Origin: a bacterium
Lineage (GTDB): Bacteria > Patescibacteriota > Minisyncoccia > UBA6257 > HR35
DNA length: 56,965 nt
Reading direction: 5' to 3'
Assembly: GCA_037444025.1 (NCBI GenBank)
Contig: JBBINE010000005.1
Coordinates: 22,590 to 79,554, forward strand
Under the pieces are notes generated by a model, which worked only from the letters and a program-made list of their open reading frames with translations, was not told the origin of the DNA and made no database searches. Positions 14,538 to 50,560 of the stretch are shown one piece after another. Position numbers and translations under genes: made by a program. How positions within the stretch are numbered: the first letter of the stretch is position 1; the number at the start of each line of letters is the position of its first letter.

Positions 14538-14553
14538 TGAGTTTTGCTAATTT

Positions 14554-14638: not shown

Positions 14639-14737
14639 TTAAAATAAAAAGAAGCATAAAAACACTTGTTTTTAGAATACAATACCTTGTTCGATGTTAT
14701 GTTTTTATTATATGATAAAATGATAAAATAATAATCA

Positions 14738-16831: not shown

Positions 16832-17556
16832 TTTTTCTTCTTTCAATTTTTCTTTCTTTTGTCCTTCCTCTTTTTGTTGGAATTTACTTTTATAAACAAG
16901 ACCCTCATCGTGAGCCATTTATTTACCTTTTAGCTTCATTTTTTTTAGGAATTATAGCTGCCTTTTTAAGTTATCAAGCTGAGTTTTTTTTGGAAAAAAT
17001 AAATTTTTTTAAAGAAAATTACATTTCTTATTCTTTGGCTAGTGCTTTTTTAGAAGAATTTTTTAAATTTTATACAATTTATAGTTTGATTTTTCCTCAA
17101 GCAGTTTTTGATGAGCCAATGGACGCTATAGTCTATATGTCTTTTTCTGCTTTTGGTTTTGCTTCTATAGAAAATGTTGCTTTTATTACAAAAGAACAAG
17201 AAAAGAATACTCTACAAATTGGTCCTGAACTAAAAGAAAACAATTTTTATTTACTTTTTTTGGTGTTTTTTAGATTTTTAAGCGCTAATTTTTTGCATTT
17301 TTTAGCTTCAGCTCTTATTGCTTTAGGTTATGCTTATTTCATGAAAACAAGAAATATTTTTTCTTTTGTGATTTCTTTTCTGGTTGCTTGTATTTTACAT
17401 TTTCTTTATAACTTTTCTTTAATTGTTTTGTATTCCTATCAAAAATTAGATATAATTAATCTGAAATCGCTTTTATTGTTTATTTTTTCCGGTGTTTGGT
17501 TTTTATTTTTCGTCGTTCTTTTAAGAATAAATTATCTTAAAAAAGAAAATGGATGA
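16822..17556 (+). CDS. prsW: PrsW-family intramembrane metalloprotease
   Basis: Polytopic protein with FLEEFFKF (ExxK), FGFASIEN and HFLYNF (HxxxN) motifs. Confidence 0.8.
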   Translation: MEIIFLLSIFLSFVLPLFVGIYFYKQDPHREPFIYLLASFFLGIIAAFLSYQAEFFLEKINFFKENYISYSLASAFLEEFFKFYTIYSLIFPQAVFDEPMDAIVYMSFSAFGFASIENVAFITKEQEKNTLQIGPELKENNFYLLFLVFFRFLSANFLHFLASALIALGYAYFMKTRNIFSFVISFLVACILHFLYNFSLIVLYSYQKLDIINLKSLLLFIFSGVWFLFFVVLLRINYLKKENG

Positions 17557-17936: not shown

Positions 17937-18010
17937 CGGGGCATAGCGCAATTGGCTAGCGCACCAGCATGGGGTGCTGGAGGTTGTGGGTTCGAGTCCC
18001 ACTGCCCCGA
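17937..18010 (+). tRNA. tRNA-Pro (anticodon GGG)
   Basis: CGGGGCA TA GCGC AATTGGCTA GCGC A CCAGC ATGGGGT GCTGG AGGTT GTGGG TTCGAGT CCCAC TGCCCCG A. Confidence 0.9.
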
Positions 18011-18030
18011 TTTATTGTCTTTTTATTCAA

Positions 18031-19275
18031 ATGAAATTTTTTTCTGATTTACATCTTCATTCCAAATACTCCCGAGCTTGTTCTAGGAATTTAGATTTGG
18101 AGAATTTAATTTACTTTGCTAAGCTAAAAGGAATAAATTTGCTTGCTACAGGTGACATTACTCATCCTTTATGGTTTAAAGAGATTTTTTCTAAGCTAGA
18201 AGAAGCTGACGAAGGTATTTATAAATTAAAAAAGTCAAACGAGCAAATTTTTTTTGTTTTAGGGGGTGAAATTAGTTCTATTTTTTCAAGAAATAACAAG
18301 GTTTATCGTATTCATTATATTGTTATTTTGCCAAATTTTAATTTGGTTGAAAAACTAAATAAAAAACTTGCTCTTTATTCTAATTTAGCTAGTGACGGAA
18401 GACCAAATATTGGTTTAGATGTGATTGATTTTATGAAAATTCTTTTTGACATTTATGATAAAGCTATTTTTATTCCTGCTCATATCTGGACTCCTTGGTA
18501 CTCTCTTTACGGTTCCATGTCCGGGTTTAATTCTATTTTTGATGCTTTTGCTAATTTTACTAAATATGTTACTGCAGTAGAAACAGGGCTTTCTAGTGAT
18601 CCCAATATGAACTGGCGTCTTTCTGAATTGGATAATTTTAGCATTGTTTCTTTTTCAGATGCACATTCTCCTTCTCCTCATCGTTTAGGAAGAGAGATAA
18701 CTGTCTTTGAATTAGACCAACTTTCTTATGATAATCTTTATCGAGCAATGAAAAAACCTGATGACCAAAATAAAATAGCCTTAACAGTAGAATTTTTTCC
18801 TGAAGAGGGAAAATATCATTATGATGGTCATCGTTTATGTAATATTCGTTTTTCTCCATCAGAATCTAAACAGAATAATTATCTTTGTCCTGAATGTAAG
18901 AGAAAATTAACTATCGGAGTAATGAGTAGGGTTGAAGAGTTAGCAGATAGACCCGATAATTTTTTAGATCCCAAAAGACCTCAGTTTATTAAAACAACTC
19001 CTTTACTTGAAATAATTGCCCAAATCGTTAATGCTAATGTTGGTTCCAAAAAAGTTTTCGATCTTTATTGCAAAGTAATTGAAGAAATAGGGACAGAAAT
19101 CAATATTCTACTTGGTTACCATGATGAAGAAAAAATGAAAAATAAATATCCAGAAATTAACTTAGCCCTTAGCAAAATAAAAAAAGGCGATATCATTCTT
19201 GAAGCGGGATACGACGGTGTTTATGGTAAAGTAATTATTAACACTAATTTGGCGAGTAAAAAGACATTATTTTAA
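18031..19275 (+). CDS. PHP-domain endonuclease, EndoQ-like
   Basis: FSDLHLHSKYSRA, PAHIWTPW, ETGLSSDP, FSDAHSP, EEGKYHYDGHRLC, the zinc ribbon CPECKRKLTIGVMSRVEELAD, and GYDGVYG. The start is set at ATG 18031, because the track ORF start at 17974 lies inside tRNA-Pro. Confidence 0.65.
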   Translation: MKFFSDLHLHSKYSRACSRNLDLENLIYFAKLKGINLLATGDITHPLWFKEIFSKLEEADEGIYKLKKSNEQIFFVLGGEISSIFSRNNKVYRIHYIVILPNFNLVEKLNKKLALYSNLASDGRPNIGLDVIDFMKILFDIYDKAIFIPAHIWTPWYSLYGSMSGFNSIFDAFANFTKYVTAVETGLSSDPNMNWRLSELDNFSIVSFSDAHSPSPHRLGREITVFELDQLSYDNLYRAMKKPDDQNKIALTVEFFPEEGKYHYDGHRLCNIRFSPSESKQNNYLCPECKRKLTIGVMSRVEELADRPDNFLDPKRPQFIKTTPLLEIIAQIVNANVGSKKVFDLYCKVIEEIGTEINILLGYHDEEKMKNKYPEINLALSKIKKGDIILEAGYDGVYGKVIINTNLASKKTLF

Positions 19276-19615: not shown

Positions 19616-22119
19616 ATTTAGTTTTTGAAAACGATCTTTTAAATTTAAATCCTTACGGAAGAAGATTTTTTTTAATCCTTCAAGAGGTTGTTTATTTTTT
19701 AATTTTAGGATCCTCTTTTGTTTTTACTGGTTCATCGAGTGAAAAATTAAAATATTTAGGTTTTTTAATAATATTTTTCTTTTTAGGTGATTTTTTGAGA
19801 AAAAGATTTTTCTTCTCTGATGATTTAAGAGCCTTTTTAGATGTCGATAAGGAGAAAATCAATATAGAGAAATATCTAAACCCAAAAGTTAGAGATTTTT
19901 TAATCGATACTATTACTGATGGGGAAATTTTAAATTTCTATCATCCACAAGTTTTTCTCTTAAAAAGACTTTTAAGAGAAAAAGCAATTAAAAATCTCTT
20001 AAAAGAATTAAACATTGATTATCAAGTTTTTTCTCAGGAAACTCTCTTTCACCAAAAGAGTAGAATAGAGACTATTAGAGATAAAAATTTTTTTTTAAAT
20101 GCTTATCTTCCTATTTTAAAAGAAGCTTTTAATTTAGGTAAGCTCTTAAGCTATCCCTATATCAACTTTTTATTTCTTTTTTATGGCTTAAGGATAAAAG
20201 CCGAACCTAACCTCGAAGCTTTATTTGAAAAATATGATTTAAAGAAAGAATACATTCTAAGTGCTGTAGTATTAAATATTTTTTCTAAAAAATTGTCACA
20301 TAATTCTAAAGATTTTAACGTGATTTTTACATCAATTAAAAAGCCTAATAAAAAAAGACTTTTACCCGGATTTATTTTTAATAAAGTAGAAAAAACTTTT
20401 GCTCATTATGTTCAAGATTTTACATTTTTAAGTCATAAAAAAAACATAGGTTTTTTGGTAGGTCATCGACAAGAAGTTGAAAATATTTTTTTAAATCTAA
20501 GAAAAAAAAGAAATTTTTTTCTTATAGGAAATGAAAACCTGGAAAGAGATGCTATAATGTGGCATATTTCTTGGTTAATTCAAAATGAGTTAAGTCCTAA
20601 AGAGCTTTTTGATTTTAGATTAATTAAAATTGATCTAAATTTAATTTATACAAAGGAGAGAGACAAATTTTCTCAAGTATTTTCTCGGTTAATCGAGGAT
20701 ATTTTTGATCTTGACAAAATTATTTTATATCTTTCTGCCTCTGATAAAAATGTAGTAAATCAAGGACTATCAATCCTTGCTTCCTTTTTAGAAAAGAAAA
20801 AAAACAACAAAAGTATTATATTGGTTTTTTCTTTAGATTTTCAGGATTACAAGAATATTCTTTCTTCCTTTGACCATTTTTTCGACAAAATTTATGTTAA
20901 AAGTCTTTCTTTTGACGACTTTGTTATTTCTTTAAGCCTTAAATCAATTTTTTGGACCCAGAGTAAAAAAATCAATCTTACTCCCCAAAGTATAGTAGAT
21001 TCAATTTTTTTTTCTCAAGATATTTTAGGTGATATGAGTTTGGCTGAAAAAGTAATAGTTAAGGCAATAGAAACAACTAAAAAAGTTAACGGTCAATACT
21101 TAACCACTGAAATGATTAGAGAGATAGTTAATGAATGTTTAAGTGATAGTATTAGAGAAAAAATAAACAAAGAAAAAGAAAAAATTTTTAACCTTGAAAA
21201 TCTTCTTCGACAAAGGATAGTTAATCAAGAATATGCTCTTAAAAAAATTTCTGACTATTTTGCTAGAATTTTTCAAAATCAAGATTTTCAAAGGGAAAAA
21301 CCATTGGGAATTTTTTTATTTTTAGGACCAAAAGGAGTAGGTAAAACGGAAACGGCTAAAACTCTGACTAAGATTTTTTATGGAAAGGAACAGGAAATGA
21401 TTTCTCTAAATATGGGAAATTTACAAAAAAAGAAAACAACAAACTTACGGTCACTATATTTTAGAAACTTTATTGTAGTGGAAGAAATAATTGAAGCAGT
21501 AAAACAAAAACCCCGTAGTCTTATTCTTTTAAAAGACTTTGAAAAAACAAATCCTATATTTTGGAATTTTTTTTCACAAATTTTTAGCAAAGGGTTTATT
21601 GAAGATTCTCTAGGTCAGAAAATTGATTTTAAAGATAACTTGATTATCTGTACTTCAAGTATTTTTGAAGAATGGATCAAAGAAAAAATGAATCAAAAAA
21701 TAGAATTTGATATAATAGTAGAAGATTTAAAAAAGAAACTTATTGATGTTTTTTCCCAGGATTTACTTAGTCAGTTTGATGAAGTGGTTGTTTATCGTGC
21801 TTTGAAAGAAGAAGAATTGCTGAAAATAACCGAAATGACTATTGATGATTTTAAAAATGATTTTTTGCTAAAATACGGTCTAATTTTAGAGATAGAAGAG
21901 CAAGTGATAAAATCAATTTTCTTAAAAAATTATGATCTGAGCCCAGACAGCGTTTGGTTAAAAGAAAAATTAAATTCAACCATAAAGAGTAAGATTAAAA
22001 ATTTAATTTCTTCAGGTTTAGTTAAAAGAGGTCAAAAAATAAAAATTTATTGTGAAAACAATTATGATCAAATCGAGGTAAAAATTGAAGAATCTAATTT
22101 TAAAAGCTATGAAAATTAG
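19612..22119 (+). CDS. ClpA/ClpB-like double-AAA+ protein with N-terminal TM helices and degenerate nucleotide sites
   Basis: The D2 domain aligns to Clp: IVNQEYALKKISD, LFLGPKGVGKTETAKTL, LILLKDFEKTNPIFWNFFSQIF. The D1 position reads LIGNENLERDAIMW instead of LIGEPGVGKTAIVE. Confidence 0.7.
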   Translation: MNLVFENDLLNLNPYGRRFFLILQEVVYFLILGSSFVFTGSSSEKLKYLGFLIIFFFLGDFLRKRFFFSDDLRAFLDVDKEKINIEKYLNPKVRDFLIDTITDGEILNFYHPQVFLLKRLLREKAIKNLLKELNIDYQVFSQETLFHQKSRIETIRDKNFFLNAYLPILKEAFNLGKLLSYPYINFLFLFYGLRIKAEPNLEALFEKYDLKKEYILSAVVLNIFSKKLSHNSKDFNVIFTSIKKPNKKRLLPGFIFNKVEKTFAHYVQDFTFLSHKKNIGFLVGHRQEVENIFLNLRKKRNFFLIGNENLERDAIMWHISWLIQNELSPKELFDFRLIKIDLNLIYTKERDKFSQVFSRLIEDIFDLDKIILYLSASDKNVVNQGLSILASFLEKKKNNKSIILVFSLDFQDYKNILSSFDHFFDKIYVKSLSFDDFVISLSLKSIFWTQSKKINLTPQSIVDSIFFSQDILGDMSLAEKVIVKAIETTKKVNGQYLTTEMIREIVNECLSDSIREKINKEKEKIFNLENLLRQRIVNQEYALKKISDYFARIFQNQDFQREKPLGIFLFLGPKGVGKTETAKTLTKIFYGKEQEMISLNMGNLQKKKTTNLRSLYFRNFIVVEEIIEAVKQKPRSLILLKDFEKTNPIFWNFFSQIFSKGFIEDSLGQKIDFKDNLIICTSSIFEEWIKEKMNQKIEFDIIVEDLKKKLIDVFSQDLLSQFDEVVVYRALKEEELLKITEMTIDDFKNDFLLKYGLILEIEEQVIKSIFLKNYDLSPDSVWLKEKLNSTIKSKIKNLISSGLVKRGQKIKIYCENNYDQIEVKIEESNFKSYEN

Positions 22120-22999
22120 ATTATTTTTTCTATTTTTATTTTTAGCCTTATTTTTAGTAATTGTTCTTTTTACTGTTTATGGCTCTACAGAGATGTTGTT
22201 TTTCTCAAGTATGAAATTGTTAACTTCCGATTTAAATTTATTACTGTTAGGTAAACCAGGCCCTGGTTATATTGCACCAGAAAATACCGACTCTATCATG
22301 GTAGTTCATTATAGTCACTCTAAAAATAAACTTTTTATTATTCCTGTACCTCGAGATTTAATAGTTAGAAACGAAGAAGGAAGCCTGGAAAAAATAAATG
22401 CCTTTTACGAAAAGAAAAAAATTGATTTTTTATTAGAAAAAGTGTCTAACTACACTGGTTTTAAAGTAAAAAATTATTTAGTTTTCGATTTAACCTTGGT
22501 GAAAAATTTGATTGATTTTTTAGGTGGTGTTGACATAGTACTTAAAGAACCAGTTGTTGATCCTGTTAGTTTTTATACTCTTTCCTCAGGTAAGCACCAC
22601 CTGGATAGCTATCTTATGGAATTGGTTTTAAGATCAAGATATAACAGCAGGGGTGATTTTTTTAGATTAGAAAATCAAATAGAAACTATTAAGGACATAA
22701 AAGATAAAATGGTTAATTTAGATAGCGAAGGAAAAATAAAATTGTTTAGATTATTTGAACAAAATTCTTCTCATTGGGAATCAAATCTCAAAAAAGAAAA
22801 TTTGGTTAAAATATTTTTACAAATTAGAAATATTAAAAACTTAGAAATAGTTCCTCTGGTTATAGATCTTAACTCAGGATTACTGCAATCAGGTAATTTT
22901 CAGGTTTATAACACAAATAATGTTTTTGGTATTTATCCGAAATTAGGGGTCGATAATTACGAAGATATAAAAAATTATATTCAATCTAGAGCCAAATGA
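22085..22999 (+). CDS. LytR-CpsA-Psr (LCP) family cell-envelope phosphotransferase
   Basis: TM anchor followed by NTDSIMVVHYSHSKNKLFIIPVPRDLIV and RSRY. An alternative start is MKIRLFF at 22109. Confidence 0.75.
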   Translation: MKNLILKAMKIRLFFLFLFLALFLVIVLFTVYGSTEMLFFSSMKLLTSDLNLLLLGKPGPGYIAPENTDSIMVVHYSHSKNKLFIIPVPRDLIVRNEEGSLEKINAFYEKKKIDFLLEKVSNYTGFKVKNYLVFDLTLVKNLIDFLGGVDIVLKEPVVDPVSFYTLSSGKHHLDSYLMELVLRSRYNSRGDFFRLENQIETIKDIKDKMVNLDSEGKIKLFRLFEQNSSHWESNLKKENLVKIFLQIRNIKNLEIVPLVIDLNSGLLQSGNFQVYNTNNVFGIYPKLGVDNYEDIKNYIQSRAK

Positions 23000-25983: not shown

Positions 25984-29110
<3,127 letters not shown>

Positions 29111-29197: not shown

Positions 29198-29313
29198 CCC
29201 CCTGTGGTCGCATGTTCTTGCTGGAACCACCTCTTTCCATTCCGAACAGATAGGTGAAACGGCAAGAAGCCGATGGTAGTGCTTTTGAGCGCAAGAGTAG
29301 GTACCGCAGGGGG
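29198..29313 (+). rRNA. rrf: 5S ribosomal RNA
   Basis: Terminal helix CCCCCTGTGG...CCGCAGGGGG, plus CCATTCCGAACAG and GTAGTG. 116 nt, 87 nt after the 23S. Confidence 0.92.
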
Positions 29314-31129: not shown

Positions 31130-31633
31130 ATGAAAAACAAAAAGGATAAACAAGAGATAGTAAGACAACTTAGAAATAGATTTGAAAAAGCTAAAGGCTA
31201 TATTTTAATTAATCTATCTAATTTAAAAGGAAATTCTCAATTTTTGCTTAAAGAAATTCTTAAAAGTCAAAATTCTTTATTTCAAGTAGTCAAAAAAACA
31301 CTAATCTACAAAGCTAATCCTAATTTTCCTTTTAAAGATGAAGAAACCAAAATTCCTTTTGGTTTAATTTGGGAGTTTGATGAAAATTTAAATTCTTTTA
31401 GAGCTTTAAAAATACTTAAAGAAAAAGATTTAGAAGTTAATATTGTGAGTGGTTATTTTAAAGGTAGAGTGTTAAAAACTGAAGATGTTGTTCGTTTTTC
31501 AGAATTACCTTCAAAAGATCAATTGATCTCTAATCTTGTTTATTCTTTGAAAGGTTTGAGTCATAGACTTAATTTTACTCTTGCTTTTCCTTTGAAAAAA
31601 TTAGTTTCCACTTTGTCGTTAATTAAAAAATAA
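31130..31633 (+). CDS. rplJ: 50S ribosomal protein L10
   Basis: 167 aa, located immediately upstream of L7/L12. The N-terminus (K..IV..L...F....) is L10-like. Confidence 0.85.
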   Translation: MKNKKDKQEIVRQLRNRFEKAKGYILINLSNLKGNSQFLLKEILKSQNSLFQVVKKTLIYKANPNFPFKDEETKIPFGLIWEFDENLNSFRALKILKEKDLEVNIVSGYFKGRVLKTEDVVRFSELPSKDQLISNLVYSLKGLSHRLNFTLAFPLKKLVSTLSLIKK

Positions 31634-31671
31634 AAAATGATTTCGTTAAAGCGAAATCTAAATTTAGTCAA

Positions 31672-32055
31672 ATGGTAGAAAAAGTTCAAAAGATAATCGA
31701 TGAAATTTCTAGTTTGACTGTAGTCGAACTTAATGAATTGATTAAAGCTTTGGAAGATAAATTTGGGGTTAGTGCTGCTACTGCTTTTATTCCTTCAGTT
31801 TCAGTAAGCGTTGGTTCTGAAACAAAATCAGAAGAAGGTAAAAGTGAATTTGATATTCATCTTGTTAGTTCTGGAGAGAATAAAATCCAGGTAATAAAAA
31901 TTTTAAGAGAAATTGATCCCAACTTATCGTTGAAAGATGCTAAAGATTTAGTTGATAATCCTCCGCAAAAAATTGCTGAAAAAGTAGAAAAAAGTAAAGC
32001 TGAGGAATTCAAGAAAAAATTTGAAGAAGTTGGAGCTAAAGTTGAATTAAAATAA
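31672..32055 (+). CDS. rplL: 50S ribosomal protein L7/L12
   Basis: IIDEISSLTVVELNELIKALEDKFGV, then KIQVIKILREI..LSLKDAKDLVD, then GAKVELK. Confidence 0.95.
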   Translation: MVEKVQKIIDEISSLTVVELNELIKALEDKFGVSAATAFIPSVSVSVGSETKSEEGKSEFDIHLVSSGENKIQVIKILREIDPNLSLKDAKDLVDNPPQKIAEKVEKSKAEEFKKKFEEVGAKVELK

Positions 32056-32072
32056 ATCAGTTTTTAGATTTT

Positions 32073-33095
32073 TTAGAAAAAAACACATCCATTATTCTTG
32101 TACCAAGCTGGTGTTCCATATTCAAAGTGCCAACTTTCTTTGCTAAACCTTCTAAAGCCGGCCTGACACATAATTTCTTCAAGTTGTTTCCAATCTTGTT
32201 TTCTTTTAAGTATTTCTATTCTACCTCTTGGATTCTTAACAGCAAGGTTGACATCTACTGCTAAGCCAAAATTATGATTTGATCTTCCTGGTCTAGCTAC
32301 TGGTTTGATTCTTCTTCCAGCTTGATATTGTTCATATAATATTTTTTGTTCTTCTATACTTCTGTAACTACTATTTATATAAAGAATATAATTTTTATTT
32401 CTATCTTTTGCTTCTTTCCCGGCTTTTTGAAGACGTCGAACCAAGAGATAATGAATTCTCATCTGTTTTTTTGAAAGGACAATACCATTTAGTTCGAGTG
32501 ATTTTTTTGCTAGGGGAGAACTTGCTTTTACGGTAAAAGGTTTGCCTTTTACTTGCTCTAACAGAACTAGGTCAGTGCCTTTGTTAAAATTTCTAGTAAA
32601 TGTAGAAGCATCTAATCCAGAGATATTTAAATCTTCTCCCGTAAAAACAGCTTTGATAGCAATAATTGCATCCCTGAAGAAGACCTTAATTTTTGTTCCT
32701 ATAGATTGTTGACTATCTGGTAAATACTCTTCATCTATTTCTGGTTCCGCTTCCATATCTTCTATCTTTACCTTAACCTTCACCACCGGGATAATCAATT
32801 TATTTTCTTGGAATATCTCAGGATTAACTAATTGTAAAATGGAAGGGAAAATAAAAAGAATAATCAATCCTATCAAAGCACTTTTCATCATCTCTTTTCC
32901 TCTTCTGCCACCAGGAGAAAAATTAATAGGTGAAGTCTCTAATAAATACTTAATAGCTCCCAACAAAAAATAAAGGAAATCCAAAGCTAAAAAAATAACT
33001 AAAATCAAATTATAAAAACTCTGAAGACAAGCAATTAAATTTTCACATCTTGAGATGGAAATTATTTGTGAAGGACTTAATAAATCAAATTTCAT
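32073..33095 (-). CDS. two-TM (VirB2/TrbC-pilin-like) N-module fused to an M15/VanY-type peptidoglycan peptidase
   Basis: The N-terminal 110 aa are identical to those of the upstream paralog. The C-terminus carries SSYRSIEEQ, ARPGRSNHNFGLAVDV and ESWHFEY (Zn ligands H, D, H of the Hedgehog/DD-peptidase fold). Confidence 0.8.
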   Translation of the reverse strand: MKFDLLSPSQIISISRCENLIACLQSFYNLILVIFLALDFLYFLLGAIKYLLETSPINFSPGGRRGKEMMKSALIGLIILFIFPSILQLVNPEIFQENKLIIPVVKVKVKIEDMEAEPEIDEEYLPDSQQSIGTKIKVFFRDAIIAIKAVFTGEDLNISGLDASTFTRNFNKGTDLVLLEQVKGKPFTVKASSPLAKKSLELNGIVLSKKQMRIHYLLVRRLQKAGKEAKDRNKNYILYINSSYRSIEEQKILYEQYQAGRRIKPVARPGRSNHNFGLAVDVNLAVKNPRGRIEILKRKQDWKQLEEIMCQAGFRRFSKESWHFEYGTPAWYKNNGCVFF

Positions 33096-33096
33096 T
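32767..33096. repeat. 330-bp direct repeat, copy 1 (partner at 33939..34268)
   Basis: By-eye comparison shows base-for-base identity from tttaccttaaccttcaccaccggg to aaatcaaatttcatt, at an offset of 1172 bp. Confidence 0.9.
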
Positions 33097-34267
33097 TATT
33101 TTTTAAAAAAGTATTCAATTTGTCCTCGGAGGGAATCGAACCCCCAACCTCGTGGTCCGAAGCCACGCGCTCTTCCAATTGAGCTACGAGGACATTTGTA
33201 AAAATTTCATGTATTAATTTTAAAACAAGATTGGTATTTTCAAGGGATTCTCCTATTTTTGTTTTTATGGCTTTTTTTGGTTTTATTCTGAACCATTTTT
33301 TGCATGTTTCCTTAGGATCTCCTGCGCAACGACAAATTTGTGGTCCTCTACTCCATACTGACCACGCACCAAAACTACCCTTAGAACCCAAAAATTTATC
33401 TAAGGCTAATACTATATTAACATCAGGATTTTGTAAAATTTTTACACACTTTAAATACATATTCTTTGCTTCTCTTTTAACTCGACAATTAAAATTCTTT
33501 CCTGAAAAAAGTATTTCAGGTTCGCAACTTTCTCCGCGCAAGAGTCGGCTTTTTATATAACTTGTATAATGTGTTACCGTCATATTTATTTGAAACAAAC
33601 CAATGGAAAAAGGTTCCCCAGTTTGTTTTACTCCACTAGGACCAACGCATCTATCTGTTGTTGATATAGCCTCTGGTCTTCCACCCGATTCTTTATAACA
33701 TATCAAAGAAAATAGTTTTACTATCGTTTCTATTTGAAGGTCTGAATATCCTCTTGCTTTTAATGGTTTTTCCATTTTTTCTTTAAGATTAGACGGCAAA
33801 CACTCGTCGTTTATAGGCATAACTCCTCTACCTATTCTGTTCCCACAATCTGAAGGCGTGACATTTTGGTATTCTATTGTATCCTCAGGTATATCAGTTC
33901 CTGGTACTTCTCCTTTTGAAAGGTCGTATTTAACTTTTTTTACCTTAACCTTCACCACCGGGATAATCAATTTATTTTCTTGGAATATCTCAGGATTAAC
34001 TAATTGTAAAATGGAAGGGAAAATAAAAAGAATAATCAATCCTATCAAAGCACTTTTCATCATCTCTTTTCCTCTTCTGCCACCAGGAGAAAAATTAATA
34101 GGTGAAGTCTCTAATAAATACTTAATAGCTCCCAACAAAAAATAAAGGAAATCCAAAGCTAAAAAAATAACTAAAATCAAATTATAAAAACTCTGAAGAC
34201 AAGCAATTAAATTTTCACATCTTGAGATGGAAATTATTTGTGAAGGACTTAATAAATCAAATTTCAT
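33092..34267 (-). CDS. two-TM (VirB2/TrbC-pilin-like) N-module fused to a Cys-rich lysozyme-like/SLT-type glycosidase
   Basis: Identical N-module, then CYKESGGRPEAIS...FSIGLFQINM (catalytic Glu-Ser followed by the GLxQ motif of the SLT/lysozyme-like superfamily) and many Cys residues. The true 3' end is uncertain because the last ~35 codons run through tRNA-Arg. Confidence 0.7.
   Translation of the reverse strand: MKFDLLSPSQIISISRCENLIACLQSFYNLILVIFLALDFLYFLLGAIKYLLETSPINFSPGGRRGKEMMKSALIGLIILFIFPSILQLVNPEIFQENKLIIPVVKVKVKKVKYDLSKGEVPGTDIPEDTIEYQNVTPSDCGNRIGRGVMPINDECLPSNLKEKMEKPLKARGYSDLQIETIVKLFSLICYKESGGRPEAISTTDRCVGPSGVKQTGEPFSIGLFQINMTVTHYTSYIKSRLLRGESCEPEILFSGKNFNCRVKREAKNMYLKCVKILQNPDVNIVLALDKFLGSKGSFGAWSVWSRGPQICRCAGDPKETCKKWFRIKPKKAIKTKIGESLENTNLVLKLIHEIFTNVLVAQLEERVASDHEVGGSIPSEDKLNTFLKNK
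33121..33193 (-). tRNA. tRNA-Arg (anticodon TCG)
   Basis: The reverse complement reads GTCCTCG TA GCTC AATTGGAA GAGC G CGTGG CTTCGGA CCACG AGGTT GGGGG TTCGATT CCCTC CGAGGAC A. The gene lies inside the 3' end of ORF 33092..34267. Confidence 0.9.
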
Positions 34268-34268
34268 T
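33939..34268. repeat. 330-bp direct repeat, copy 2 (partner at 32767..33096)
   Basis: Same evidence as copy 1. The flanks diverge immediately outside the repeat (tatt vs cgtt; atcttctatc vs atttaactttt). Confidence 0.9.
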
Positions 34269-34290
34269 CGTTAATATTTTAAATTTTAAT

Positions 34291-35295
34291 CTACAATTTT
34301 TTTCTACTTACTTTTTCATATAAATAAATAAGCCAATAAGAATTTTTAAACCTATAATCTACAGCTGGGCAAAGTTTAACTAAGCTCCCCCCAAAACCTT
34401 TTTTAAATTGGGACAAACCATACCAGGGGTGAGAAGAATTTTCTTTCCTAGCTATTCCCCAAAAATTATAAAAATAACATTTTCTTTTTTGAGCTTCTTT
34501 TATTATTTCCCATTGCAATTTATAATTTATTGGTTCTTTCACCGGGTAAGAGGCAGAATGATGATAAAAAGCATTTCGATGAGAAAAAATAACAATAGCA
34601 GCTGAAACATAATCTACCTCTATCTTGCCTAAAAAAAGTAAAGCTTTATTTCCTTTGTTAAAAATTTCAAATTCTTTAAAAATAAATTCTTTTGAGTAGG
34701 GAATAAATTTTTTTCTTCTTGCTAAATCTTCATAAATTTTCCAAAAAATATCTAATTTGCTTTGATCGTTTGTTTTTTCAATTTCTAAAAATGGTTTTTT
34801 GAGTGAATCAAGAACTAATTTTTTGTGGCTAGAATTCATTTCTTTGATCATATCTTCATCTTTTTGTATTTTTTTTAACCAAAAATTTTCACTAACAGCA
34901 TAAGTCGGAGCTAAAATAAAACCGAGTTTTTTAAAGGTTGATATTTTATCATCGCTTTCTATAGGGTTGATTCTTAAAAATTTATATTTGTGATTATATT
35001 TCTGCTCTTTTAAAAAATTGATCATTAATTTCAGTGCTTCTTCTAGGTATTGTTCTTTAATTACTGGGCCATGGTGGATTACCAACCCATTTCTTTTGCC
35101 CTTGTAGCCGACTAATTGACATATACCAACTAATTCTTTGCTTTCTTTAAGAAAAAAGCCTAATCTCAAAACTTCTCTGCCTAAACTTTTTTCTATTTCT
35201 CCGTATTCAAAATCTTGTAAAAAACTGATATATTGATTATCATCTAAAAATTCGTTCCATTTTTCTTTATTGATTGATTTTTCGATTGTTAACAT
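34291..35295 (-). CDS. FemAB-family peptidoglycan interpeptide-bridge aminoacyltransferase
   Basis: 334 aa with WNEFL...FLQDFEYGEIEK, a GNAT-like duplication pattern, and LQWEIIKEAQKRKCYFYNFWG. Confidence 0.75.
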   Translation of the reverse strand: MLTIEKSINKEKWNEFLDDNQYISFLQDFEYGEIEKSLGREVLRLGFFLKESKELVGICQLVGYKGKRNGLVIHHGPVIKEQYLEEALKLMINFLKEQKYNHKYKFLRINPIESDDKISTFKKLGFILAPTYAVSENFWLKKIQKDEDMIKEMNSSHKKLVLDSLKKPFLEIEKTNDQSKLDIFWKIYEDLARRKKFIPYSKEFIFKEFEIFNKGNKALLFLGKIEVDYVSAAIVIFSHRNAFYHHSASYPVKEPINYKLQWEIIKEAQKRKCYFYNFWGIARKENSSHPWYGLSQFKKGFGGSLVKLCPAVDYRFKNSYWLIYLYEKVSRKKL

Positions 35296-35392
35296 TTTTT
35301 ATTAGCTATTTTTTATATTATAAAAAAATATACTAAAATGAAATTAGAACCGACACCATCTGGCATCTTCTTTATGGCTATAGAGGAAATAT

Positions 35393-36667
35393 CTATAGCC
35401 ATTTTTTTATTTTTGCTAAAATAAAATTTATATCTTCTGTTTTTAAGGATGGATATGTTGGTAGATTTATAATTTTTTGGCTTAAATTTTCTGCTCGAGG
35501 ACATGTTCCTGTCTGATAATCAAATTTTTTTAAATCACAGCACGGCATTAAAATACAAAAATACCAATCGCCTAAATAAATATTTAACTTCTTAAATTTT
35601 TGGTAAATTTCGTCTCTACTTTCTATTAAGATAGGATATCTCAAAAATATAGGCTTACTTTCTTGAGGATAATTTAAGGGAAATTTCTCATTAATAATTC
35701 TAGCTATTTCTTGTCGGTGTTGATTAAATTTCTCTAATTTTTTTAACTGATTTAAAAGCAAGGGGAAAAGTAATTCCGGATATTTCAAGAAATTATTAAT
35801 GCTTTTTGCCTCTTTTTCAGGTTTCGAGATCATCTCTAAAGTTAGTTTCAATTTTCTAGTTAATCCTAAAATTTTTTTATAAAAAAAATTATAATTTTCT
35901 CTTAGTTGATAAAGTAAAAGACCTGTCCTAACTACTTTTTTGATCTCTGTGTATTCTTTTAACTTTTCATATTCTTTTTTTATTGTTTCAGAAAAATTTT
36001 TATTATTAACAATTAAAGCTCCACCGATGATACTAGAAATAACTTTATTTCTATTAAAAGAAAGCAAAGCGAAATCTCCAAAATTGCCTAAATATTTTTC
36101 TTCATATTTAGCTCCTAAAGAATGAACCAAATTTTCAATGACCAAAATATTGTTTTCTTGAGCAAAGCTTAAAAGTTCCTTAACTTTTGCCGGAAGACCG
36201 AAGGTATTTTGAATAATTAGTACAAATTGAGATGTAGGTTCAATGGATTTATTCCTTGCTTGGTGTATCTGGATATGGTTTGGGCTATTCTTGAATGATC
36301 TTTTCAAAGCCGAGAATTTATTTTTTAAATCTTTAAAATCTAGATTATAACTTTCATCTATATCAATATAAATAGGTTTCCAGCCGGCAGACTTTATCGC
36401 GTGAGGCACAACAAGACAGGTAAAAGCTTGATTAAAAACAAAACCAGGAGTTTCCTTTTTTAAAATCTTAAGAAGAAAACCTAAAGCATTTCTTGCCGAA
36501 TCAAAAAAATAAATTTCACTTTCAGGAAAATAAGAACTGATTATTTGCAAGACTTCTTCCTTACTTTTTTTGATAGCTGACTCTGGATAAAAATTTAATT
36601 TTTTTATAATTTCAACATCATCCTCTTCAAAATTAGGTACCAGATCAAGATTGATTATTTTGTTCAT
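35393..36667 (-). CDS. DegT/DnrJ/EryC1/StrS-family PLP aminotransferase-like protein
   Basis: SARNALGFLL, NTFGLPAKVKELLSFAQENNILVIENLVHSLGAKY, GDFALLSFNRNKVISS (Lys at the Schiff-base position). Confidence 0.6.
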   Translation of the reverse strand: MNKIINLDLVPNFEEDDVEIIKKLNFYPESAIKKSKEEVLQIISSYFPESEIYFFDSARNALGFLLKILKKETPGFVFNQAFTCLVVPHAIKSAGWKPIYIDIDESYNLDFKDLKNKFSALKRSFKNSPNHIQIHQARNKSIEPTSQFVLIIQNTFGLPAKVKELLSFAQENNILVIENLVHSLGAKYEEKYLGNFGDFALLSFNRNKVISSIIGGALIVNNKNFSETIKKEYEKLKEYTEIKKVVRTGLLLYQLRENYNFFYKKILGLTRKLKLTLEMISKPEKEAKSINNFLKYPELLFPLLLNQLKKLEKFNQHRQEIARIINEKFPLNYPQESKPIFLRYPILIESRDEIYQKFKKLNIYLGDWYFCILMPCCDLKKFDYQTGTCPRAENLSQKIINLPTYPSLKTEDINFILAKIKKWL

Positions 36668-41223: not shown

Positions 41224-43122
41224 ATGGAAAGAAGAAATAAATTGTTTATTGCTATTTTGTCATTAGCTTTACTTTTAAATGGCGTCGTACCCTTTACCTT
41301 TTCCCAAGCACAATCAGGTTGTAATCCAGATGCTTTAAAACCAGTATCCCAAGGTCAAAGAGGTAATGAGGTAAGAAATGTTCAAGAATGCTTGATGGAG
41401 GCAGGATATGATATTCCAGCTGGTGCTACTGGTTATTACGGAAAGCAAACAGTAGAAGCTGTTAAAGCTTTTTATGCTGATTGGTATGGTTCTTGGCACG
41501 GAAAGAATATTGGTCCTAAAGGAATAGCTACACTTAAGTCATTGATAGCTTCTCTATGGGGAGAGGAGGAAGTAGTTGAAGAAGATCAAACTGGACAACA
41601 ACAACCAGGAAATCAACCATCGCAACAAACTGATATTGCTGCTATCGTTGCTGCTGTTTTAGCCGCTCTTCAACAATCAGGAGTTATTCCTTCTGTATCT
41701 ACAACAACTACAGGAACAGCACAGCAAGAAGGATTTTTAGTTGTTGAACAAGATCCTTCTGCTACAGGAGTTACTGTAAGAGAGGGAGAATCAGCTAATG
41801 TATTTGGTTTAAGATTCAGAGCTGATAATGGCTCTGTAACAGTAAAATCAATATTCTTAAGATGGACAGGAAGTTCAGCTCCTTATAGAGTTCTTTCTAA
41901 TTTAGCATTGGTTGATTCTCAAGGAAATGTTCTTTATCAAACAGCTGTTACTCCTTCAACATTCCTTCAAGACTCAAACTTAAACTACTATCTTCCTGTA
42001 ACAGGTCTTAATGTAAATGTTCCAGTTGGTCAATATACTTCTGTATTCGTAAAAGTAACAGTTGTAAATACATTACCTTCAGGAGTAACTTCTGCAGGAT
42101 TTGCAGTTAATCAAAATGATGTAAGAGCAGTTGATGGAGTAGGAGTAGATAGATTTGGTCCTGTATCAAATATTTCAGGAACATTTACTCTACAAGCTTC
42201 TTTAGCTCAATCAGCAGATTGGGTTGTAGCAAGAAATCCTAATACTCCTAAGGAAGGTTATATATTTGGTGATGTATCTAGTGGTAAAGTAGATAGAGCT
42301 AAACTATTAAGCTTTGATCTTACTTCTAAAAATGATAATTTGAGATTAACTTCTGTTGTTGTAACTACAGGTGGATCAAGCAATATGAATATGTCTGCCC
42401 TATATCTTAAATATGGTGATCAAACCTTAGATGTAAGATCACCGTCAACTACTGTAACATTCAATGCTGTCCCTGCAAACTTTGTAGTTAATAAAGATCA
42501 AACAGTAACATTAGATGTTGTAGCTGATCTTCAAGGTGGTTCAACAACAACTGAAGCTACTACTTCTGTAACAGTTGCTTCAGTAACTGGTCTCAACTCC
42601 TTAGGAGGAACAGTTTCTAAATCTGTATCTGTAGCTGGTGATACTCTTCACTATAGAACATTGGGTCCTGAAGTTTCTGGATTTACTGCCAATCCAAGCT
42701 ATACACCACCATCTCAAACAGCTTCTTCATCCTATAGTGTTGTTATAAGATTCAATGTTACTCCAAGAGGAGGAACAGTCTATATGGGAACAACAACTGC
42801 TCCTACATCCTCCTTTGCAGCTGTAGAACTTGAAAAATCAGGTGGTGCTACATCAACCCCAAATGCTGGTGTAACAGTAAAAGTCTATCAAGGCTCAACT
42901 GATGTTACTAATAGCTTAACTGTTGGAGGAAGTGGACTTTTCGCTTTATCTGAGAATCAAACCTATACATTTGAAATAACTGCTGCTCAAAATGGCGCTC
43001 CAAGTGGTACTGGTTTATATAGATGGGTTGTAAGTAATCTTAAATGGCACGATGGCGCTAGTACCCAAACTGTGACCTGGACATCAAGAGATATGTACAC
43101 CAGCTACACAAACGTTCAGTAA
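41224..43122 (+). CDS. secreted cell-surface protein with N-terminal peptidoglycan-binding domain; candidate S-layer/major envelope protein
   Basis: Signal peptide, then a PG_binding_1-like segment (GQRGNEVRNVQECLMEAGYDI..TGYYGKQTVEAVKAFY). This is followed by a Q/P linker and about 480 aa rich in T/S/V/G and poor in charged residues. Confidence 0.7.
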   Translation: MERRNKLFIAILSLALLLNGVVPFTFSQAQSGCNPDALKPVSQGQRGNEVRNVQECLMEAGYDIPAGATGYYGKQTVEAVKAFYADWYGSWHGKNIGPKGIATLKSLIASLWGEEEVVEEDQTGQQQPGNQPSQQTDIAAIVAAVLAALQQSGVIPSVSTTTTGTAQQEGFLVVEQDPSATGVTVREGESANVFGLRFRADNGSVTVKSIFLRWTGSSAPYRVLSNLALVDSQGNVLYQTAVTPSTFLQDSNLNYYLPVTGLNVNVPVGQYTSVFVKVTVVNTLPSGVTSAGFAVNQNDVRAVDGVGVDRFGPVSNISGTFTLQASLAQSADWVVARNPNTPKEGYIFGDVSSGKVDRAKLLSFDLTSKNDNLRLTSVVVTTGGSSNMNMSALYLKYGDQTLDVRSPSTTVTFNAVPANFVVNKDQTVTLDVVADLQGGSTTTEATTSVTVASVTGLNSLGGTVSKSVSVAGDTLHYRTLGPEVSGFTANPSYTPPSQTASSSYSVVIRFNVTPRGGTVYMGTTTAPTSSFAAVELEKSGGATSTPNAGVTVKVYQGSTDVTNSLTVGGSGLFALSENQTYTFEITAAQNGAPSGTGLYRWVVSNLKWHDGASTQTVTWTSRDMYTSYTNVQ

Positions 43123-44257: not shown

Positions 44258-44527
44258 TTGATAAATTTGTTAAATTTATTAAAAGAGAAACAAATGAAAA
44301 ATTTAGTAACAATTAGTAAAAAATTTGTCCAAAGAAAGAGAGAATATTTTGAAAATTATAAAGATTATCTAAAGAAGTTAAAGGAATATGTTAAAGAAAT
44401 TTTAAATAATGAAAAAGCAAAAGTTTTAGTTTTTGGTTCTATTGTAAACCCATTTCAGCTTCATTTAATAACCCCTGAAGAATTTGAAGGTTGGTATAAA
44501 AATTTTATAAAAAATGAATATATCTAA
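44258..44527 (+). CDS. truncated Pol-beta-type nucleotidyltransferase (MNT-like) remnant
   Basis: AKVLVFGSIV (GS motif) runs directly into NPFQLHLITPEEFEGWYKNFI. The DxD catalytic segment expected between them is missing. The ATG start is at 44294; the track ORF starts with TTG. Confidence 0.45.
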   Translation: MINLLNLLKEKQMKNLVTISKKFVQRKREYFENYKDYLKKLKEYVKEILNNEKAKVLVFGSIVNPFQLHLITPEEFEGWYKNFIKNEYI

Positions 44528-45761
44528 ATATAAATATTTGCTTTTAATTTTTTTATTCTTTAACCTAACATTTGCCCAAAGTTTCCCTCTTTTAATTTCA
44601 GAAATAATGTACAATCCAGAAGGAAATGATAGCGATCGAGAATGGATTGAAATAGTAAATATAAGTTCTCAAACTTTTAATATTTCGGGAGGTAGAAAAG
44701 GCTGGAGAATTAATGATGGTAGCAATCATCTTTTTGAAGAAAGTAGTATTACTCTCAATCCGGGTGAAGTTTTGCTTATAGTTCAAGATAAAAATAAATT
44801 TTTACAAGAAAATTCAAACTTTTCAGGAAAATTAATTCAGGCTAATTTTTCTTTGAAAAATGAATTAGGAAGCATTCAAATATATAACGAAAATAAGAAT
44901 TTAATCACCCAAGCAAATTATTCAAGTTCCTATGGGGGAAATGGAAATGGTTATTCAATAATTTTTCAAGATGTTTGGAAAGAGAATAATCTTAAAGGAG
45001 GAACACCGGGAATTTATCCAGAAAGAATAATTTACGAAGAGAAAAAGGAAGAAATAGGGCAAAATCAAAGAGCAACTTCCTCGCAAATCCAAACTCAAAA
45101 TACAACCTCACAGTCATCTTTATTTTTTACCTCCAACTCTACCACCAATATAGGGACGTCGTACGTCCCTATATATCCCACAGGGAATGAGATAATAGAG
45201 CCAAAAACATTAATTATTTCAGAGTTTTTACCCAATGCTGAAAGAAATGATAATGGAAAAGAATTTATTGAAATATACAATTATGGTGATGAAACTGTTA
45301 ATTTAGAAAATTTTATTCTTCAAGTAGGAAACAAGAAAATAAAACTTCAGGGAAATATTGAGCCAAATGAGTATTTTGTAATTACTAACAAAGATAATAA
45401 TTTTTCGATAAGAAATTCGGGAGAAACAGTAAAAATTTTATACAAAGAAGAACCAATCTTTGAAATTTCTTATCAAGGAAAAGCTCCAGAAAACGAGAGT
45501 TTTTCCAAGTTTTCTTCTGGATGGGCTTGGAGTCTTCCTACTCCAGGAAAAGAAAATCAAAAGATACTTAAAGAAACAAAAGGAAATATTGAAACAAAGG
45601 AAGAAAAGAGATACGATCAAATCTTTTTTGAGAATTCTACTTCTTCTTTTTTAGCCCAAACTAATAATAATTTAAATCCAGCGGATAAAACTATTTATTA
45701 CTTATTATTAGGCTTGATTTTTATTTTTCTTATCACGATAATTGTTGTTTGGAAGCTTTAA
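44514..45761 (+). CDS. surface protein with two lamin-tail domains (LTD) and C-terminal TM anchor
   Basis: Signal peptide, then LLISEIMYNPEGNDSDREWIEIVN and LIISEFLPNAERNDNGKEFIEIYNYGDETVNLENF, and finally the C-terminal helix YYLLLGLIFIFLITIIVVW. Confidence 0.75.
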   Translation: MNISKYKYLLLIFLFFNLTFAQSFPLLISEIMYNPEGNDSDREWIEIVNISSQTFNISGGRKGWRINDGSNHLFEESSITLNPGEVLLIVQDKNKFLQENSNFSGKLIQANFSLKNELGSIQIYNENKNLITQANYSSSYGGNGNGYSIIFQDVWKENNLKGGTPGIYPERIIYEEKKEEIGQNQRATSSQIQTQNTTSQSSLFFTSNSTTNIGTSYVPIYPTGNEIIEPKTLIISEFLPNAERNDNGKEFIEIYNYGDETVNLENFILQVGNKKIKLQGNIEPNEYFVITNKDNNFSIRNSGETVKILYKEEPIFEISYQGKAPENESFSKFSSGWAWSLPTPGKENQKILKETKGNIETKEEKRYDQIFFENSTSSFLAQTNNNLNPADKTIYYLLLGLIFIFLITIIVVWKL

Positions 45762-46861: not shown

Positions 46862-47200
46862 ATGAAAAAAAAATTGAAACTTATTTCACTTATTTTTTGT
46901 TTTTTTCTTGGAATAATGGTTTTAGCTCAAAGTAGTGGAGGAGACAACGATAATGTTTTTAAGATTATCAAACAAATAATTTCTTTTATGTTTTCTCTTT
47001 TTTTAATGTTAAGTATACCTATTTTGATTTTTTTAGGGATAAAATATATTTCTGGATGGGGTGAGGCTAGAGAGTTAAACAAATTATTATTTTATGTTGT
47101 TATCGGCGTAGTAATTCTGGTTTTATCTCTTTTTATTCCTAATTTAATCAAAAACTTTTTTGATAATATTATTGGAGGTCCTAACCCTACAACACCTTAA
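46862..47200 (+). CDS. VirB2/TrbC-like two-TM pilin-family small protein
   Basis: Signal peptide, then two TM helices flanking a short charged loop (LIFLGIKYISGWGEARELNKLLFYVVIGVVIL). It resembles the N-modules at 32.8 and 34.0 kb (FLLGAIKYLLETS...GKEMMKSALIGLIILF). Confidence 0.6.
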   Translation: MKKKLKLISLIFCFFLGIMVLAQSSGGDNDNVFKIIKQIISFMFSLFLMLSIPILIFLGIKYISGWGEARELNKLLFYVVIGVVILVLSLFIPNLIKNFFDNIIGGPNPTTP

Positions 47201-49877: not shown

Positions 49878-50348
49878 ATGAAACAAAAAAAGATAACCAT
49901 ATTATTAGTCGGGGTTTTAGTACTGTTTTTTGTCCTGCCATCTCCGACTAAACAAAGACCCAGTCTCGAATCTGGCAACACCAGACTCAAGATTAGGTCT
50001 TCTCACCTTTCTCACTCCCAGTTTTCTTTTTCCCTTTCCCGAAAAAAAACCAAGAAAATGGTATATCTTGGTTTATTTACGGTTACGGCCTATAGTCGTA
50101 GCCACAGGGAGGGGACCATACGAGGGATAACCGCTACTGGTTTACCGGTAGATAAAGGCGTGGTAGCAGTAGATCCGAAGGTGATACCCCTCGGATCTTT
50201 GTTATTAGTAGAAGGTTACGGCTACGCTATAGCCGCAGATACTGGTGGCAAAATCAAAGGAAGAAAAATAGATATATTCTTCCATACAAAGGAAGAATGT
50301 TTTGAGTGGGGAGTGAGAAAGAAAAAAGTTTATCTCATTTCTCTGTAA
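49878..50348 (+). CDS. secreted 3D-domain (DPBB fold) protein
   Basis: Signal anchor, then FTVTAYS, GITATGLPVDKGVVAVDPKVIPLGS, and ADTGGKIKGRKIDIFF. Confidence 0.7.
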   Translation: MKQKKITILLVGVLVLFFVLPSPTKQRPSLESGNTRLKIRSSHLSHSQFSFSLSRKKTKKMVYLGLFTVTAYSRSHREGTIRGITATGLPVDKGVVAVDPKVIPLGSLLLVEGYGYAIAADTGGKIKGRKIDIFFHTKEECFEWGVRKKKVYLISL

Positions 50349-50391: not shown

Positions 50392-50482
50392 ATTTTTAGA
50401 AAAATTTTATATATGTTGATTTTTATAATTTTAATTATCTTGGTATAATAAAATTAAAATATAATAAAAATTATTTTAATCA

Positions 50483-50555
50483 GCGGCGGTAGTTCAGTTG
50501 GTAGAACGTCTCCCTTCCAAGGAGAAAGTCGCGGGTTCAAATCCCGTCCGCCGCT
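50483..50555 (+). tRNA. tRNA-Gly (anticodon TCC)
   Basis: GCGGCGG TA GTTC AGTTGGTA GAAC G TCTCC CTTCCAA GGAGA AAGTC GCGGG TTCAAAT CCCGT CCGCCGC T. An extended -10 box (TGGTATAAT) lies at 50441-49. Confidence 0.9.
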
Positions 50556-50560
50556 CCCTT

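Follow-up and report, generated by a model that had tools for sequence, protein, structure and literature searches.

Members of the Patescibacteria rely on an unusual type IV secretion system (T4SS), which is essential in the only species tested and is accompanied by puzzling arrays of VirB2-like pilins (PMC12102498, PMC10633639, PMC12857230). The pilins described so far are ~25% identical within one array, with a maximum of 54% (PMC12102498), and homologues of VirB1 are mostly absent from this group or unlinked to virB4 (PMC12102498, PMC10633639, PMC12857230). In Gram-positive bacteria, the VirB1-type hydrolases (PrgK of pCF10, TraG of pIP501 and CD419/TcpG) carry several catalytic domains per chain on an ordinary transmembrane helix (PMC12102498). 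In Southlakia epibionticum, virB4 is followed by SEML1_0007, an M15B-like protein, and SEML1_0006, which has two lysozyme-like domains and a cysteine peptidase, and these genes are reported to be essential for epibiotic growth (PMC12102498). Here we analyzed a 57-kb stretch of DNA (hereafter the window; GC content 29.8%) from a metagenome-assembled contig of 79.5 kb belonging to an ultra-small Patescibacterium of the Parcubacteria type, in which two adjacent genes, here called gene A and gene B, begin with the same pilin-like membrane module and continue into two different heads of the peptidoglycan hydrolase type. Fusions of a pilin module to a hydrolase, or homogenisation of such a module, were not found described in the searchable literature, where pilins and hydrolases are dealt with apart from each other; the Pfam models PF18895 and PF18896 exist. 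The enzyme family is thus apparently undescribed, and its kind, T4SS-associated membrane-anchored wall hydrolases, is already known.

A 330-nt direct repeat shared by two genes

When the window was compared with itself base by base at an offset of 1172 nt, positions 32767-33096 and 33939-34268 formed a single unbroken run of 330 identical nucleotides in direct orientation, both copies being read on the minus strand, and a repeat search agreed. On either side of the run the mismatches returned to the background level, and identity of this length cannot arise by chance in sequence of 29.8% GC. The repeat begins 1 nt before each ATG and stops within codon 110, so that residues 1-110 (MKFD...VKVKVK) are the same in the two proteins. 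This is what a first-pass annotation, made from the letters of the DNA, had reported by eye, namely a perfect direct repeat of 330 bp, 1172 bp apart, that supplies the start codon and first 110 residues of two proteins. Neither tblastn nor a hidden Markov model (HMM) of the family detected a third copy of the module in the window. The features of the locus are as follows, ORF standing for open reading frame.

33939..34268, minus strand: repeat copy 1, the start codon and codons 1-110 of gene A, encoding the pilin-like two-helix module (exact 330-nt identity; family HMM, 93 bits; helical hairpin in AlphaFold)
32767..33096, minus strand: repeat copy 2, the start codon and codons 1-110 of gene B, encoding the same module (exact 330-nt identity; family HMM)
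33092..34267, minus strand: gene A ORF, 391 residues, consisting of module, linker, Cys-rich lysozyme-like head (about residues 150-315), C-terminal tail and tRNA read-through (ORF list)
32073..33095, minus strand: gene B ORF, 340 residues, consisting of module, linker and spacer, and M15/VanY zinc peptidase head (ORF list; Pfam)
32118..32402, minus strand: VanY/M15 catalytic domain, residues 232-326 of gene B (Pfam, PDB sequence match, conserved residues)
33121..33193, minus strand: tRNA-Arg(TCG), contained in the 3'-terminal part of the gene A ORF and separated by 24 nt from the downstream ATG of gene B (ARAGORN; Rfam RF00005, 70.6 bits)

The TGA stop of gene A overlaps the ATG of gene B (ATGA), and 17 nt separate the end of gene B from rplL, which converges on it. 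When positions 31600-35500 were scanned for promoters and terminators, the number of sites did not exceed that in shuffled sequence.

The tRNA, which the first-pass annotation had missed, changes how the end of gene A is to be read. The last 34 codons of the ORF are translated tRNA-Arg(TCG) plus a 24-nt spacer; no stop codon precedes the tRNA in this frame, and the public annotation likewise gives 391 residues (P0002). Most homologues of the gene A head finish ~10 residues past a W-x-x-W...C motif, and a short additional tail is common to gene A, P0003 and P0063. Because the frame of gene A simply continues through the tRNA beyond this shared tail, its annotated C-terminus is probably not native. 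If gene A, the tRNA and gene B were transcribed together, tRNA processing, by RNase P and at the 3' end, would cut the transcript and leave a gene A mRNA that has no stop codon; a tmRNA gene lies at positions 26-364 of the window. A crossover between the two direct repeats would delete the tRNA-Arg, and this might, as a speculation, stabilise the tandem.

A family with one module and many heads

The family to which the two genes belong emerged only from an exhaustive HMMER search, in which the 110-residue module was compared with 1.84 billion representative proteins at E<=1e-3. This search gave 108 proteins (cluster representatives), 44 of them at E<=1e-10. In a word-indexed homology search only the two window proteins were matched, and a profile of the module added no more than four short proteins; when gene A and gene B were looked up as exact proteins, neither turned up on another contig, and the FemAB neighbour, used as a query in a genome-contig collection, retrieved no relatives. 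A 210-nt degenerate DNA pattern gave 0 matches in genome and metagenome contig collections, where long runs of N were probably mishandled and the zeros are no sign of absence; run locally, the same pattern matched three times in the relative locus L001 and once in L002. Several family members (those of L002, L003, L005 and L010) stand alone on contigs of 1.2-2.3 kb whose ends lie near the gene, as expected if assemblers break at identical copies of the module. Family size and paralogue number are probably under-counted in metagenomes.

Nearly all of the 108 proteins are 250-390 residues long with the module at the N-terminus, and the relatives come from metagenome-assembled genomes (MAGs) named 'Candidatus Parcubacteria bacterium' and 'Patescibacteria group bacterium'. 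Positions C17, C23, Q25, Y28, N29, F40, G46, K67, L87, N91, P92, I94 and F95 of the module are nearly invariant. The C-terminal parts fall into ~21 unrelated head clusters, so that the recurrence of the module with other heads, suspected from the two window genes, was borne out by the survey of their relatives. The heads with a Pfam match include VanY/M15, Peptidase_C39_2, SLT, SLT_2, SLT_3, 3D, CHAP, YkuD, Amidase_5 and Amidase_6, each of these types being a peptidoglycan enzyme; most heads, including those of the largest cluster (34 members), have no Pfam match.

The module starts with a polar segment that has two cysteines, continues with two hydrophobic helices separated by the basic loop GGRRGKEMMKS, and ends with the motif NPEIF and the linker IIPVVKVKVK. 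Its AlphaFold model is a helical hairpin with helices at residues 20-53 and 62-90 and a mean pLDDT (the model's confidence score) of 85, and the two helices around a basic loop with a VKVKVK end, as first described, are therefore present in both the sequence and the model. Such a pair of long hydrophobic helices with a short basic loop between them is a feature of the T4SS_pilin family PF18895, and K67 is among the positions that hardly vary in the family. The PF18895 model is matched at E<=1e-3 by 95 of the 108 members, of which P0029 (38 bits), P0044 (33.8), P0006 (33.4), P0047 (31) and P0065 (30.7) exceed its cut-off of 26.6 bits, and the window module matches the homologues that pass at E 1e-15. 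From these matches of its homologues, which uphold the earlier impression of a pilin-like segment, the module is probably a two-helix membrane hairpin of the Patescibacterial VirB2-like pilin family (PF18895 type), although the window copy itself stays below the cut-off.

Neither gene product looks like a stand-alone prepilin with a cleavable signal peptide: they are 391 and 340 residues long, carry enzyme heads, and begin with 28 polar residues in which a hydrophobic signal peptide is lacking. In at least 5 of the 108 members, a minority, a classic signal peptide precedes the module as in prepilins, and this places the Cys-pair segment, and the heads that follow two membrane passes, outside the membrane. 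The N-terminal ~28 residues with the Cys pair would thus lie outside, helix 1 would cross the membrane, the basic loop would be cytoplasmic and helix 2 would return, after which a linker of the 'IPxVxVxxP' type would set the catalytic head outside, at the wall. Like the VirB1/PrgK-type proteins, the products of gene A and gene B combine an N-terminal membrane anchor with a peptidoglycan hydrolase domain.

The window contains one further pilin-like gene, given here for context.

46862..47200, plus strand: stand-alone TrbC/VirB2-type pilin (Pfam TrbC, 28.9 bits, cut-off 27.9; PF18895, E 2e-4)

The module had been said to resemble this pilin, and this did not hold: BLASTP gave E 0.97, hhalign a probability of 1.3%, and there was no HMM match. 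Direct kinship of the two is rejected at the sensitivity reached, and their common ground consists of weak matches to the same Pfam model.

The head of gene B matches Pfam VanY/M15 (PF02557) with 46.4 bits against a cut-off of 25 (E 4.4e-12, residues 232-326), and its best PDB sequence match is 2vo9, a phage L-alanyl-D-glutamate peptidase (E 4e-5). The zinc ligands H274, D281 and H323 (H-x6-D...H), the catalytic E320 (ExxH) and the substrate residue R245 are invariant in a head cluster of nine members. The M15/VanY assignment made at first sight thus stands well above the Pfam cut-off, with its zinc and catalytic residues intact. Gene A itself matches only SLT, at E 0.042 and 13.9 bits, below the cut-off of 21.3. 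Its head matches the members of its own cluster at E 1e-8 to 1e-18, and 9 of the 13 members of that cluster match PF18896 (SLT_3) at E<=0.1, with a best E of 5.9e-6. In the alignment of these 13 proteins, E193 of gene A is nearly invariant and S194 invariant, eight cysteines are conserved, and in the F-S-x-G-L-x-Q-I-N motif (GLFQIN) F220, S221, G223, L224, I227 and N228 are all invariant. AlphaFold models the head with a pLDDT of 73-92. A PDB sequence search with gene A found nothing significant, and the profile of the head family gave sub-threshold matches to C-type lysozymes at E 1-2. The lysozyme/SLT-like head proposed for gene A is thus retained by way of its homologues and its conserved E-S motif, although gene A remains below threshold itself; the head is lysozyme-like, of the PF18896 type, with a putative lysozyme fold based on sequence-family evidence only.

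Module identity within genomes and the surrounding genes

The same pattern of near-identical modules joined to unrelated heads was observed in at least two other genomes, where the identity begins at the ATG and breaks off near codon 107-110. On L001, a 219-kb ENA contig, three genes (module-VanY, module-CHAP-like and module-lysozyme-like) have module DNA that is 96-98% identical, with a wholly invariant core of ~225 nt and divergence at the edges only. In the Parcubacteria MAG GCA_026004475.1 (KatS3mg093), P0028 and P0029, which belong to its two loci L006 and L007, are 88 kb apart on one contig; between the ATG and about codon 107 their DNA differs at only 2 nt, and it is unrelated beyond. 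About 10 further pairs of cluster representatives have modules 87-100% identical and unrelated heads, with an origin from a single genome checked for L001 and GCA_026004475.1 only. In a pairwise matrix, the heads match by type between genomes (M15 with M15 at 33% identity, E 1e-24; lysozyme type with lysozyme type at 24-33%, E 1e-8 to 1e-18), whereas module identity is 99-100% inside one genome and 40-54% between genomes. Because the heads cluster by type and the modules by genome, the pattern points to concerted evolution, with gene conversion limited to the segment that the paralogues have in common, and gene conversion is most likely the homogenising process. Very recent duplication and ongoing gene conversion had both been proposed for the window; conversion fits the sharp-edged module identity that recurs elsewhere, including at a distance of 88 kb, and a fresh duplication of the whole gene does not.

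Two kinds of surroundings were found for the family. In L001 the order is a TraC-like gene, virB4, a 206-residue gene, module-M15, module-CHAP-like, a 381-residue gene and module-lysozyme, with a VirD4-like gene nearby, and in L007 a TraC-like gene and virB4 are followed by two genes and then by the module-head gene P0029. The position within a T4SS cluster is thus present for the homologues in L001 and L007 and absent for the window genes. Unannotated genes are interleaved downstream of virB4 (L001 6863-8008 and 4071-4691; L007 8241-10001); they encode a protein of 381 residues with an N-terminal transmembrane helix and proteins of 206 (with a signal-peptide-like N-terminus), 215 and 368 residues, which may be T4SS-associated.

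The second kind of surroundings is that of the window, in which a block of wall-synthesis genes lies upstream of gene A.

34291..35295, minus strand: FemAB-family gene, 23 nt upstream of gene A, at which the conserved wall-synthesis block (FemAB, DegT-like, MurF-like) begins (Pfam)

By this FemAB, DegT and MurF block the window locus is syntenic with L006 and L004, and gene A is the syntenic counterpart of P0028 (L006) and P0003 (L004) beside FemAB. L006 has a single module gene at this locus, in the order PG_binding protein, RecG, abhydrolase, MurF-like, DegT-like, FemAB, tRNA-Arg(TCG), P0028 (lysozyme type), tRNA-Val, rplL, rplJ and trpS. In the only relative for which its position could be assigned, the M15 gene belongs to the virB4 locus. 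The synteny indicates that the lysozyme-type gene is an old resident of the FemAB-rplL locus and that the M15 gene was added in the genome of the window. The tRNA-Arg(TCG) is orthologous in the window, L006 (9684-9758) and L004 (9787-9861), and adjoins the lysozyme-type module gene in all three; it is divergent from and upstream of that gene in L006 and L004, and co-directional and downstream in the window. Its position or orientation relative to the lysozyme gene differs in each of the three genomes, and these three arrangements imply that the locus has been rearranged repeatedly. We also tried to derive the window order (M15 gene, tRNA-Arg, lysozyme gene) from L006 or L004 by a single inversion or crossover, and no one-step path works.

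At L004, positions 7183-9730 contain five small or tandem-duplicated PF18895-type pilin-like genes (245, 143, 134, 223 and 76 residues). This array adjoins tRNA-Arg, tRNA-Leu and the lysozyme-type fusion gene P0003, so that a fusion gene is physically tied to a 'VirB2 array' there.

The window carries housekeeping genes throughout, together with 23S and 5S rRNA, RNase P RNA and the tmRNA. Insertions and introns in rRNA are common in the candidate phyla radiation. The 23S rRNA of the window (25988-29108, plus strand) is 3121 nt long against a model of 2925 positions, and the ~200 nt extra are possibly an insertion or intron; the 5S rRNA lies at 29200-29312 (plus strand), no 16S rRNA adjoins the two, and the ORFs at 26891-27175 and 28126-28419 lie inside rRNA and are spurious. 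The syntenic stretch of L006 that is devoid of genes (13876-17181) probably corresponds to this rRNA. The window has other envelope genes, all of which lack the module: a 156-residue 3D-domain protein (49878-50348, plus strand), 3D being also one of the family heads; a 632-residue PG_binding_1 protein with a weak adhesive-domain match (41224-43122, plus strand); a lamin-tail-domain protein (44514-45761, plus strand); and a LytR_cpsA_psr protein (22085-22999, plus strand). The ORFs at 17974-19275 and 50498-52618 (both plus strand) have GTG/TTG starts that overlap tRNA-Pro (17937-18010) and tRNA-Gly (50482-50558), respectively, and their true starts are probably downstream.

Probable role and comparison with known systems

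We consider it probable, with considerable reserve, that the whole package is a set of wall enzymes anchored by a pilin hairpin, kept alike in their module by recombination, and serving a T4SS/pilin apparatus. Gene A and gene B are paralogues of a Patescibacterial (Parcubacteria-type) family of peptidoglycan enzymes that would act outside the cytoplasmic membrane, with gene B as an M15 peptidase that would cut or trim stem peptides and gene A as a lysozyme-like enzyme that would cleave glycan strands. Together they would amount to a hydrolase set of the VirB1/PrgK type split into separate polypeptides with one common anchor, and their likeliest job would be the local opening or remodelling of the wall tied to the T4SS and pilin apparatus. 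The M15 gene would have been added beside the resident lysozyme-type gene, and the 330-bp identity would come from recurrent homologous recombination, or gene conversion, in the sole stretch that the paralogues have in common.

Several observations weigh against this account. No virB4 or other T4SS machinery gene is found in the 57-kb window, and the immediate neighbours of the two genes are wall-synthesis genes, as is the Mur ligase gene beside the homologue in L008, surroundings that fit a housekeeping autolysin equally. The window module falls below the PF18895 gathering score of 26.6, with 19.7-20 bits (E 7-9e-4, residues 24-90), and Foldseek with the module alone found no significant or pilin match in the PDB, so that the pilin fold is without structural confirmation; the lack of a specific pilin match is expected because the hairpin is generic. 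The lysozyme fold of gene A is likewise without structural confirmation, Foldseek with the full-length model having found nothing in the PDB at E<=1, and the transcript of gene A may be severed by tRNA processing, which makes its expression uncertain. Finally, 0 differences in 330 nt would also follow from a very recent insertion of gene B via the module.

This last point can be taken further, and it is conceivable, though unlikely, that gene B, or a segment with the head of gene A and the tRNA, was inserted in one recent event, a single homologous recombination via the module. The 0 differences in 330 nt stand against 2-12 in L001 and GCA_026004475.1, L006 has only one module gene at the locus, the three arrangements of tRNA-Arg and lysozyme gene in three genomes reveal a rearranging locus, and the 1172-bp unit consists of the repeat plus a unique segment as a crossover within the module predicts. 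However, one such event leaves unexplained why the same pattern occurs in unrelated genomes and at dispersed loci, and insertion via the module is itself recombination between similar pre-existing modules, so that it overlaps the conversion view. An assembly artefact, in which a mixture of strains or a collapsed repeat gave a false tandem, deserves hardly any credence. The perfect identity is longer than typical short reads, the contig is metagenome-assembled, and several family members lie on 1-2 kb contigs as if assemblers struggle at the module; but the four module junctions are all distinct, both ORFs are intact, the junction of tRNA and module must exist in the reads, and the multi-copy arrangement is also present in independent assemblies, whose copies differ slightly from one another, a pattern that makes an artefact unlikely for the window too. 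As to the role, the two proteins could be housekeeping membrane-tethered autolysins for growth and division of the own wall, with no tie to a T4SS and with the hairpin merely a convenient anchor having both termini outside. This would suit the position of the gene beside FemAB, DegT and MurF in the window, L006 and L004 and beside the Mur ligase in L008, the presence among the heads of YkuD L,D-transpeptidases and VanY-type carboxypeptidases, which are typical wall-maturation enzymes, and a window with no T4SS genes. We hold it to be rather unlikely: the anchor is homologous to T4SS pilins and is not a generic transmembrane helix, paralogues follow virB4 in two genomes, one of their modules being 99% identical to that of the FemAB-locus paralogue of the same genome, and analogous M15 and lysozyme genes after virB4 are those reported essential for epibiotic growth in S. 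epibionticum.

In F and T pili, both ends of the VirB2-type hairpin face outward. The module could accordingly co-polymerise with VirB2-like pilins and display the heads on a pilus or the surface as offensive enzymes that breach the wall of a host or partner, with selection for co-assembly keeping the modules identical. The module belongs to a pilin family, its outward N-terminus is backed by the members with a signal peptide, identity is kept at a distance of 88 kb, the lysozyme-type gene of L004 adjoins a pilin array, and epibiotic growth depends on the T4SS and pilin arrays of Patescibacteria (PMC10633639, PMC12857230). On the other hand, no PF18895 protein is known to form a pilus, a head of 230-280 residues on every subunit would hamper helical packing, YkuD-like heads are no weapons, an adjacent gene for immunity or self-protection is absent, and identity at synonymous sites indicates recombination rather than selection at the protein level, so that we regard this display as very improbable. 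A somewhat different possibility, which we also think quite improbable, is that the module is a true assembly subunit that places wall-cutting heads in or on the T4SS filament or channel of Patescibacteria, giving an enzyme-tipped conduit that would open the own wall, the host wall or both. Homogenisation would then be selected since a single polymer or docking site has to accept all of the heads, and some 'VirB2 pilins near virB4' would be the 'missing' VirB1 equivalents.

The layout of the locus had also been compared with that of polymorphic effector systems. That part of the comparison which concerns a constant N-terminal module with diverse heads stands; the remainder does not, as an immunity gene is absent, with no small ORF between gene A and gene B or between gene B and rplL, and some heads build or trim the wall. 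A reading as polymorphic toxins was rejected for the lack of immunity genes and the non-toxic heads such as the YkuD transpeptidase.

The pilin-hairpin fusions, which in some genomes come directly after virB4, are a concrete candidate for the missing wall-opening function of these bacteria, and surveys with the PF18895 HMM may count enzyme fusions as pilins. Homogenised modules beside independently evolving heads are a natural experiment on what the module binds, and they make a clean case of concerted evolution confined to a single domain, in genomes of very small size and for tandem copies as well as copies 88 kb apart.

Among known systems, the VirB1-type hydrolases are also anchored in the membrane through the N-terminus with peptidoglycan-degrading heads outside, a glycosidase together with a peptidase or amidase; relatives of the window genes stand right after virB4. 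They differ in that here each protein has one activity, the two-helix pilin-like anchor is identical or nearly so among paralogues, and the window genes lie outside a T4SS operon. SEML1_0007 and SEML1_0006 present the same set of M15, lysozyme-like and cysteine peptidase activities and are placed with respect to virB4 just as the set in L001 is, but the annotation table of PMC12102498 gives no PF18895 match for them and the lysozyme and cysteine peptidase are fused in one protein. The PF18895 pilins of the S. epibionticum and N. lyticus arrays share with the module the Cys pair, the G-x-x-x-Y motif of helix 1, the basic loop and helix 2. Those described are stand-alone proteins of ~100-140 residues with a signal peptide, whereas the module proteins mostly lack one, carry an enzyme head of 150-280 residues and have modules 96-100% identical within a genome.

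Polymorphic toxins and effectors (Rhs, CdiA, T6SS/T7SS and the Xanthomonas T4SS effectors X-Tfe) also combine a constant N-terminus with diverse heads, several of them peptidoglycan hydrolases, and recombine at the boundary. Here, in contrast, there are no adjacent immunity genes or orphan head cassettes, every copy has a start codon of its own and is a whole gene, wall-building enzymes are among the heads, and the constant part is a membrane hairpin and not a secretion or trafficking domain. Neisseria pilE/pilS and the PilV shufflon of R64 show the same combination of a conserved N-terminal assembly region with variable C-terminal parts, and recombination limited to the shared segment; but in those systems variable parts move into a single expression site, whereas here the constant part is homogenised and all copies are complete predicted genes.

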